The notes: generated by a model not told the origin, from the letters alone. DNA of 64,000 nt from Patescibacteria group bacterium (GCA_038064675.1 JBBTSM010000010.1:2977-66976), one strand, 5' to 3'. Positions 8,210 to 8,397 are shown, counted from the stretch's first letter. Program-made: numbers and translations.

Positions 8210-8397
8210 GTCATCCCCGCGCAGGCGGGGATCCATACATCGTCACTTCGCTGGTGGCTCGGATACGCGATTCTGCATTCCGCGCGAACGCCCTACGCTG
8301 CGACGTCTCGCTATCGCTCGACTGCAGCTGTGGCTGGCGTGCTCATTGGAATCACGTATCCTCACCACTGACGCTCGCGATTACGCAATCACCTCAT
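8210..8397 (+). repeat. Copy A of a ~185-bp intergenic repeat element beginning with hairpin gtcatccccgcgcaggcggggatcca
   Basis: About 80% identical to the reverse complement of 15793..15977. Shared blocks: gctggtggctYggatac, ttctgcaYtccgcgcgaa, cccctacgctgc, cgactgcagctgtgg, gcgtgctcRttggaa, cacctca. Confidence 0.8.

Follow-up and report, generated by a model that had tools for sequence, protein, structure and literature searches.

A composite repeat, probably of the REP/MITE class, between ATP synthase genes of an Uhrbacteria-like member of the Patescibacteria

The repeat that lies between atpD and atpC in this genome is probably a mobile DNA element of the REP/MITE class, composite and non-autonomous, carried by an Uhrbacteria-like member of the Patescibacteria (CPR) from Hainich groundwater. 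It consists of two modules: the first is a single CGTC-1 REP hairpin, which belongs to a known cross-phylum family, and the second is a clade-specific 145-nt palindrome (F1) that is placed tail-to-head after the REP. The element adds a new family to a known class; the kind of system is not itself new.

The composite element and its boundaries

According to the homologs of its AtpD, the stretch of 64,000 nt analyzed here (the window) belongs to the Patescibacteria and is close to Candidatus Uhrbacteria. Its first 10,424 nt are identical to L159, the ENA contig Hain_H41_02um_R2_118 (98.8 kb, Hainich groundwater well H41). Copy A of the repeat (8209-8380, plus strand) is present, essentially unaltered, in two independent assemblies, with 0 mismatches in L159 and 4 mismatches over 10.4 kb in L160 (NCBI), and is therefore not an assembly artifact. 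Copy B (15803-15978) is on the minus strand. The two copies show 84% mean column identity in a MAFFT pairwise alignment and 79.7% identity over 182 nt by blastn (E=1e-38), a similarity that is far beyond chance and agrees with the value of about 80% given by an earlier sequence-only reading of this DNA, which had also recognized the 5' hairpin as identical in both. This 26-nt hairpin, GTCATCCCCGCGCAGGCGGGGATCCA, shows no difference between copies A and B, and the 64 kb contain two exact matches to it, one on each strand, with 7.7 kb between them. Every gene of the region is encoded on the minus strand (gene order: cvpA, tatD, atpB, atpE, atpF, atpH, atpA, atpG, atpD, and atpC), which makes copy A antisense to transcription and copy B sense. 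The features of the window that bear on the element are as follows.

2..424, plus strand: C-terminal half of a gene for a RAYT-type tyrosine transposase, truncated at the window edge (tblastn against the RAYT of locus L131)
8209..8235, plus strand: CGTC-1 REP hairpin of copy A, antisense to the atp operon, read from the sequence; tag CGTC at 8209-8212, stem ATCCCCGC at 8213-8220, loop GCAG at 8221-8224, stem GCGGGGAT at 8225-8232, tail CCA at 8233-8235
8239..8380, plus strand: long imperfect palindrome F1 of copy A (covariance-model match, 132.9 bits)
15745..15802, minus strand: F4 module, between the body of copy B and the actual start codon of tatD (ATG at 15733) (blastn)
15803..15948, minus strand: long imperfect palindrome F1 of copy B (covariance-model match, 145.2 bits)
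15952..15978, minus strand: CGTC-1 REP hairpin of copy B, tag AGTC, tail CCA, sense to the cvpA-tatD transcript
49765..49987, plus strand: diverged F1 arms with the F2 palindrome (49803-49947) nested in the center (covariance-model match, 28.8 bits, E=7e-6)
59866..59921, minus strand: third CGTC-1-type REP, tag GGTC, same 8-bp stem, tail CCA

In copy A, F1 is made up of arm 1, an asymmetric center, and arm 2, and it abuts the atpD stop codon (8381-8383); this boundary was fixed by comparison with relatives and with the empty site. Throughout the clade AtpD ends in ...GTIDEV[I/T/L/A/S]A followed by the stop, a C terminus that is kept even in a relative without the element, and the motif cacctca at 8391-8397, to which the conserved blocks of the repeat had been thought to extend, is the reverse complement of the D-E-V codons. 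Given the position of the stop codon and the conserved DEV codons, the right end of copy A is placed at 8380, and the last 17 nt of the interval first assigned to it (8381-8397) are atpD coding sequence, including the stop. Copy B had been ended at 15793, but the shared sequence runs further, through F4 at about 15745-15802. In the ORF list, ORFs across F1 exist solely as extensions of the adjoining genes: atpC is called at 7741..8214 with 157 aa versus 146 aa in relatives, and tatD is called at 14875..15990 with 371 aa versus 286 to 288 aa, which bears out the in-frame N-terminal extensions that had been proposed for both genes. The third, hairpin-only copy that had been reported is also present, at 59866-59921 and with a loop of 34 nt. 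The expanded loop forms a nested hairpin (DNA fold, -16.2 kcal/mol; z-score, -3.3), and this copy lacks an F1 body.

The CGTC-1 REP hairpin and the F1 palindrome

To judge from its sequence, the 26-nt hairpin is a textbook CGTC-1 REP. Members of this family have a CGTC tag, an 8-bp stem starting with AT, a 4-nt loop, and a CCA tail (Di Nocera, De Gregorio, and Rocco 2013, BMC Genomics 14:522; PMC3733652). The family includes Neisseria dRS3 and Rickettsia conorii RPE-6, has been reported from five phyla, and occurs mostly as head-to-head dimers and in numerous copies per genome, with loop variants recorded (PMC3733652). In the window, copies A and B share the stem and loop ATCCCCGC/GCAG/GCGGGGAT, the third copy keeps the stem, all three hairpins end in CCA, and the tags are CGTC in copy A, AGTC in copy B, and GGTC in the third copy. 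The REPs are likewise intergenic, between co-directional genes. Tag variants of CGTC-1, namely, TGTC and CCTC, are tolerated in the literature, and singleton REPs are also known in published REP families. The window differs from the published CGTC-1 REPs in three ways. The three window REPs and the three on loci L127 and L128 are all singletons, whereas the published REPs are mostly head-to-head dimers; the copy number in the window is low (three per 64 kb); and the host belongs to the Patescibacteria/CPR, outside the five phyla of the survey (PMC3733652). We regard the singleton state as an organizational difference that does not exclude membership in CGTC-1.

A scan that used one genome per species found the exact 25-mer at at least 120 loci in many phyla, the hosts among the matches listed being Alpha-, Beta-, and Gammaproteobacteria, Planctomycetota, Rhodothermota, Bacteroidota, Elusimicrobiota, Desulfobacterota, and others. 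Among the 132 occurrences listed for these loci, the tag was CGTC in 95 (72%), TGTC in 29 (22%), AGTC in 4, and GGTC in 3; the CCA tail was present in 121 (92%), and 53% were paired tail to tail with an inverted partner (median spacer, 38 nt). The REP was also found on 25 viral contigs, and F1 was found on no viral contig. A single compensatory base-pair change separates the window hairpin from the Neisseria REPIN master sequence, the 21-mer ATTCCCGCGCAGGCGGGAATC; these Neisseria CGTC-1/dRS3 REPINs have been ascribed to a Group 2 RAYT (bioRxiv 10.1101/2021.07.10.451892). At six loci from other phyla (L011, L020, L046, L090, L103, and L104), the full CGTC-1 hairpins often have one to three tandem half-sites upstream, of the form GTCATCCCCGC followed by about 8 to 10 nt, and L033 has a tandem hairpin array with identical 11-nt spacers. 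The half-sites and the L033 array look like footprints of repeated events at the 5' arm of the REP.

The second module, F1, is a long imperfect palindrome of about 145 nt with the outer ends ATCGC...GCGAT and the end sequence ...CGATGTCA. Seven copies were aligned (the two in the window and those at L127, L128, L124, L125, and L129). Their consensus stem is 47 bp, with 92.9% of the cells paired, and 22 of the 47 pairs show compensatory changes on both sides; this covariation was not reached in any of 500 column shuffles, and in slid-partner controls 27 to 48% of the cells were paired. The z-scores of the RNA folds are -3.6 for copy A and -6.5 for copy B. This outcome of the folding and covariation checks, which the sequence-only reading had itself proposed, upholds a conserved structure. 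The two strands fold about equally, however, and the difference in minimum free energy goes both ways. A strand-specific RNA structure had been considered on account of G-U pairs in the top strand and was rejected on these energies, and we therefore read F1 as a DNA palindrome.

Rfam gave no match at the gathering thresholds in the whole window, and at E<=1 it gave solely a chance-level match to FtrB (23 bits versus a gathering score of 66). The body of about 160 nt that follows the hairpin was absent from all of the loci (at least 120) listed for the cross-phylum hairpin, and F1 was found solely in the Patescibacteria clade of the window, so far as the searched sequence goes. F1 thus appears to be previously undescribed, and the novelty originally claimed for the whole repeat holds for the 145-nt F1 body and for the composite but not for the hairpin. 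The octamer GCTGGTGG, the Escherichia coli Chi octamer, occurs in arm 1 of F1 (window positions 8252-8259 and 15928-15935) in five of the seven aligned copies. A gene for an AddA-like helicase-nuclease lies nearby at 782-3718, which is probably a coincidence.

Distribution, empty sites, and mobility

A covariance model (R1) detected 11 distinct F1 copies in the window and about 200 kb of clade loci, so that the repeat does have copies in relatives, as the sequence-only reading had suggested should be looked for; the clade sequence searched overall came to about 260 kb. Besides the window, F1 is found between atpD and atpC at L124, L125, L129, and L133. It is also found between atpA and atpG at L129 and upstream of the addA-like helicase at L131, and each of these two sites is empty in other species. 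A metagenome scan with the pattern of the body matched one contig, a second one from the same well, on which REP+F1 occurs at two unrelated loci (L127 and L128). This contig shares no genes with the window and was considered as a different organism, an assignment that was rejected given the same well and the same coverage; it probably represents a further stretch from the population of the window, and for that reason we claim no horizontal transfer.

The evidence for mobility comes from comparison between species whose atpD genes differ by 12 to 23% at the nucleotide level. The divergence in atpD DNA is 12 to 14% within the inner group and 18 to 23% to L129, L131, and L133, and on this measure L129, L131, L133, and the inner group are different species. 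At L131/L132, whose AtpD is 93% identical, the atpD-atpC site is empty (TAG-gt-ATG, a 2-nt stop-start spacing) and cvpA and tatD overlap as ATGA; the cvpA-tatD site is also empty at L129. With empty sites in relatives at both positions, copies A and B are insertions. The insertions do not all share one orientation, as the window F1 between atpD and atpC is inverted relative to those of L124, L125, and L129. At L121, where AtpD is 99% identical, the same junction holds the unrelated palindrome F2 between residual F1-like outer stems. An F1-type element of about 150 nt is present between atpD and atpC in five of the six other species examined, four with F1 and one with F2 in residual F1-like stems. 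The comparison cannot separate one old insertion followed by rearrangement from repeated insertion at the same junction, and the presence of the element in five of six species fits long vertical persistence, possibly with benefit to the host, as well as it fits repeated insertion.

The composite REP+F1 unit is present at at least four loci, and F1 alone is present at other junctions in related species. The REP is attached to 4 of the 11 F1 copies, in each case at one and the same junction, 5' of arm 1, from which we infer that REP and F1 were fused once and that the fusion then spread. All F1 copies lie directly or nearly directly 3' of a stop codon, in operons whose genes are otherwise 2 to 3 nt apart or overlap. 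This placement may mark the sole tolerated spot, left by purifying selection in a compact genome, and not a target preference. Filled and empty sites were compared at the junctions atpD-atpC, cvpA-tatD, and atpA-atpG and at the one upstream of the addA-like gene, four in all, and gave no consistent target-site duplication. Copy B has a direct repeat of 8 nt, GGACTTCT, at its left junction, which was weighed as a target-site duplication or microhomology and set aside as a single case. The MITE-like mobile repeat that the sequence-only reading had put forward is supported by the empty sites, the further junctions filled in both orientations, and the covarying palindrome.

Other palindromes are found in the same regions. 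F2, a second palindromic family (caacgggtcctgtc.cctcggaccccgttacgg...), occurs at 49803-49947 in the window, inside F1-like arms; at 11370-11515 in L121, between atpD and atpC; and at 7936-8078 in L128, before a CGTC-1 REP. A third family, F3, is a strong hairpin of about 125 nt that occurs in the window at 13565-13691 and 19870-19995 and in four copies on L127/L128. One F3 copy lies between atpB and atpE, in a gap of 207 nt versus 57 nt in L121, and another strong hairpin (about 13221-13380) lies in the 205-nt gap between atpE and atpF, so that the atp operon carries several inserted palindromes. F4 (tcactcgctcaatt.gct..aagggtaatcccgatcgc) follows F1 in copy B and in L128 (3348-3414) and stands alone at 29745-29815 in the window.

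The window also has other noncoding and coding repeats. The addA-like helicase and a 405-aa gene are separated by about 505 nt (3719-4223), compared with 3 to 5 nt in L121 and L129. This spacer contains a hairpin rich in G+C, cgccgcccctgcgtagggcggcg, and on the opposite strand an ORF of 133 aa, for which the annotation of L159 gave no Pfam match. A repeat of about 90 nt is present in two copies (43420-43528 and 54953-55061), each with a perfect 20-nt palindrome, ATGTGCGGTCGACCGCACAT, that looks like an operator site; similar gttgtgtcgacacgacatc palindromes are present in the cvpA-tatD spacer of L121. At 62472-63998 on the plus strand there are tandem coding repeats with a 282-nt period (four to six units, 63 to 88% identical), which look like domains of a large surface protein running off the end of the window.

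The long hairpin could instead be a cis-regulatory RNA of the host, such as an RNase III processing or mRNA stability site that uncouples atpC from atpD and is kept because it is useful. We consider this unlikely. An F1-type palindrome does occupy the atpD-atpC junction in five of the six other species, its structure survives many compensatory changes across species that differ by 12 to 23% in atpD DNA, and the predicted folds of the whole elements are highly stable (-91 kcal/mol for copy A and -98 kcal/mol for copy B). The elements also lie between co-directional genes and must be transcribed, and effects on mRNA stability and RNase III processing have been reported for REPs and hairpin-forming MITEs in other bacteria (PMC3733652). 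However, the orientation of F1 to transcription is mixed (8 copies sense and 3 antisense, or 5 versus 3 by independent sites), and at the atpD-atpC junction itself the window copy is inverted relative to three others. The two strands fold about equally, with no consistent G-U asymmetry in stability. L131/L132 keep their 2-nt stop-start spacing there with no element at all, the L121 site is occupied by an unrelated palindrome, and there is no Rfam match. The sequence-only reading had offered a structured RNA for processing or stability in the atp operon as the other half of its interpretation, and that half receives no positive support from these comparisons. A dedicated RNA-level function inside the atp operon is thus not favored, while a putative passive effect of the transcribed hairpin on the mRNA is possible.

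For the mobile REP/MITE-class element that we prefer, the following scheme may be proposed. The F1 palindrome would be maintained at the DNA level, as the frequent compensatory changes and the equal folding of both strands suggest. Movement would occur via single-stranded hairpin intermediates. An HUH tyrosine transposase supplied in trans would cut these at the xGTC tags, with the RAYT encoded at the edge of the window as the obvious candidate. An occupied site may sometimes have its element exchanged or replaced. After insertion the hairpin would be cotranscribed, and the stop/start coupling of atpD with atpC and of cvpA with tatD would be lost. We regard this loss of coupling as a side effect and not as the purpose of the element.

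The candidate transposase and related systems

The candidate enzyme is encoded at 2..424, where the translated window is 37% identical to the L131 RAYT (tblastn, E=9e-20); the latter scores 87.6 bits against NF047646, "REP-associated tyrosine transposase" (cutoff, 80), and also matches PF01797. Protein P0126 (281 aa, MEK7633141.1) is 100% identical to the window fragment, and P0241 (294 aa as called; L159 positions 10001-10885), which is at least 90% identical to P0126, contains PF01797 (Y1_Tnp). Homologs of 280 to 300 aa are common in Uhrbacteria and other Patescibacteria; a search with the C-terminal fragment as the sole query found none. The RAYT has a TIR at 421-443 in the window and is bracketed by inverted copies of GGGGTCAGGTCTTTACCTTTTAC (L159 positions 9954-10885), not by the CGTC-1 REP or F1; two direct copies lie upstream of the gene, and one inverted copy overlaps its stop codon. 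This is the "TIR-flanked RAYT" type described previously (PMC3733652). Because the RAYT is flanked by its own repeat, its role in moving the REP or F1 is only circumstantial, and to name it as the mobilizing enzyme of the element is a guess. No RAYT gene was found by tblastn near the cross-phylum hairpins in the loci listed (at least 120).

The loop of the third REP begins with GACCTGTCCCC (59899-59909), which is one mismatch away from the RAYT repeat GACCTGACCCC (433-443), and the 11-mer pattern GACCTGNCCCC is found in the window solely at these two places. This likeness may be a small hint of a link between the element and the RAYT. Similar TGTC-tagged CCCCC/GGGGG hairpins adjoin CGTC-1 REPs at L076 (a planctomycete) and L040 (Bacteroidetes).

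The element can be compared with the REPIN-RAYT systems of Bertels and Rainey, with which it shares vertically persistent, palindromic, noncoding repeats, a single-copy gene for a RAYT-type Y1 transposase in the genome, compensatory change that preserves structure, and the absence of target-site duplication. It differs in two respects. A REPIN has two inverted REPs with a short spacer, whereas here one REP is joined to an unrelated 145-nt palindrome and none of the four composite copies has a second REP, either inside the F1 body or past it. The RAYT has an inverted repeat of its own at its flanks in place of the CGTC-1 REP. One may nevertheless suppose that the F1 palindromes and the REP make up a long-lived, vertically inherited, REPIN-like population in an ultra-small CPR genome, mobilized by the TIR-flanked RayT-type enzyme and retained by the host at operon junctions, atpD-atpC among them, as processing or decoupling sites that set subunit stoichiometry. 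This is a doubtful reading. If it were true, the candidate phyla radiation would have its first described REP-RAYT system, and the CGTC REPs would gain the dedicated transposase that they are said to lack.

Three other explanations fare worse. A one-off local duplication, perhaps an inverted-repeat pair that inverts the 7.4-kb atp block and not a dispersed family, would account for there being just two full copies in the 64-kb window, inverted around one block. The two copies do bracket the block from atpD to tatD, as had been pointed out, but there is no sign of an inversion: the gene order cvpA-tatD-atpBEFHAGDC is the same in relatives without copy B. More copies are present at unrelated loci and in other species, and copy B is closer to the L128 copy at 3172-3370 (88.6% identity by blastn, F1 of copy B) than to copy A (about 80%), which makes a local duplication very improbable. 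The hairpin could also be an orphan type I-E CRISPR repeat or a decoy RNA derived from one, since its core TCCCCGCGCAGGCGGGGAT is identical to part of the type I-E CRISPR repeat of Corynebacterium ulceribovis, GTGTTCCCCGCGCAGGCGGGGATGAGCC (PMC4572677). The likeness is limited to the stem-loop, however, and the CGTC tag and the CCA tail are features of CGTC-1 REPs and not of that repeat; the occurrences at the loci listed are single or in inverted pairs and not direct repeats with spacers, the cross-phylum loci listed contain no CRISPR array apart from one tandem repeat with identical "spacers," and no cas genes were seen in the regions inspected, so that we give this idea hardly any credence. 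That the hairpins are intrinsic transcription terminators is just as implausible, for while the short stem-loops are G+C-rich and lie between genes, neither transcribed strand has a T-run after the hairpin, a scan of 7600-16600 calls neither site and gives fewer sites than shuffled sequence, and one hairpin stands partway through the atp operon, with the gene of an essential subunit downstream of it.

The composite REP/MITE-class element also resembles two other groups of repeats. In the Neisseria intergenic mosaic elements (NIMEs) and the E. coli BIMEs, REPs and separable repeat modules make up intergenic mosaics, and similar mosaics are seen here: the REP occurs with F1 and with F4, F2 is nested in F1 arms, and at L128 F2 is followed by a REP. 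NIMEs differ in being 50- to 150-bp units with dRS3 on both sides, arranged in large clusters, whereas the element described here has, in contrast to NIMEs and BIMEs, one REP on one side of a long palindrome, and its partner modules are themselves hairpins. With the hairpin MITEs (Correia/NEMIS, ERIC, RUP, Nezha, and Rickettsia RPEs) it shares a noncoding sequence of 100 to 200 bp, long inverted arms that fold into a single hairpin, and insertion beside or between genes, with cotranscription and in-frame ORF extensions. The classical features of a MITE (terminal inverted repeats, small size in the class of 50 to 500 bp, and lack of coding capacity) are all found. It differs from them in that target-site duplication is undetectable, whereas Correia and Nezha duplicate TA, and no parent insertion sequence with matching ends or a DDE transposase was seen in the approximately 260 kb of clade sequence.

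These results have a practical side for annotation, as the element yields false N-terminal extensions of atpC and tatD as well as spurious small ORFs and makes atpD seem to end inside the repeat. The part of the literature that was searchable here holds no catalogue of such repeats in Patescibacteria. The reduced and tightly packed genomes of these bacteria still carry palindromic repeats of the REP/MITE type together with a gene of the RAYT family, and such repeats wedge between translationally coupled genes of operons. The CGTC-1 REP hairpin thereby reaches one more phylum, letter for letter, and the question of which enzyme moves CGTC-tagged REPs becomes approachable.
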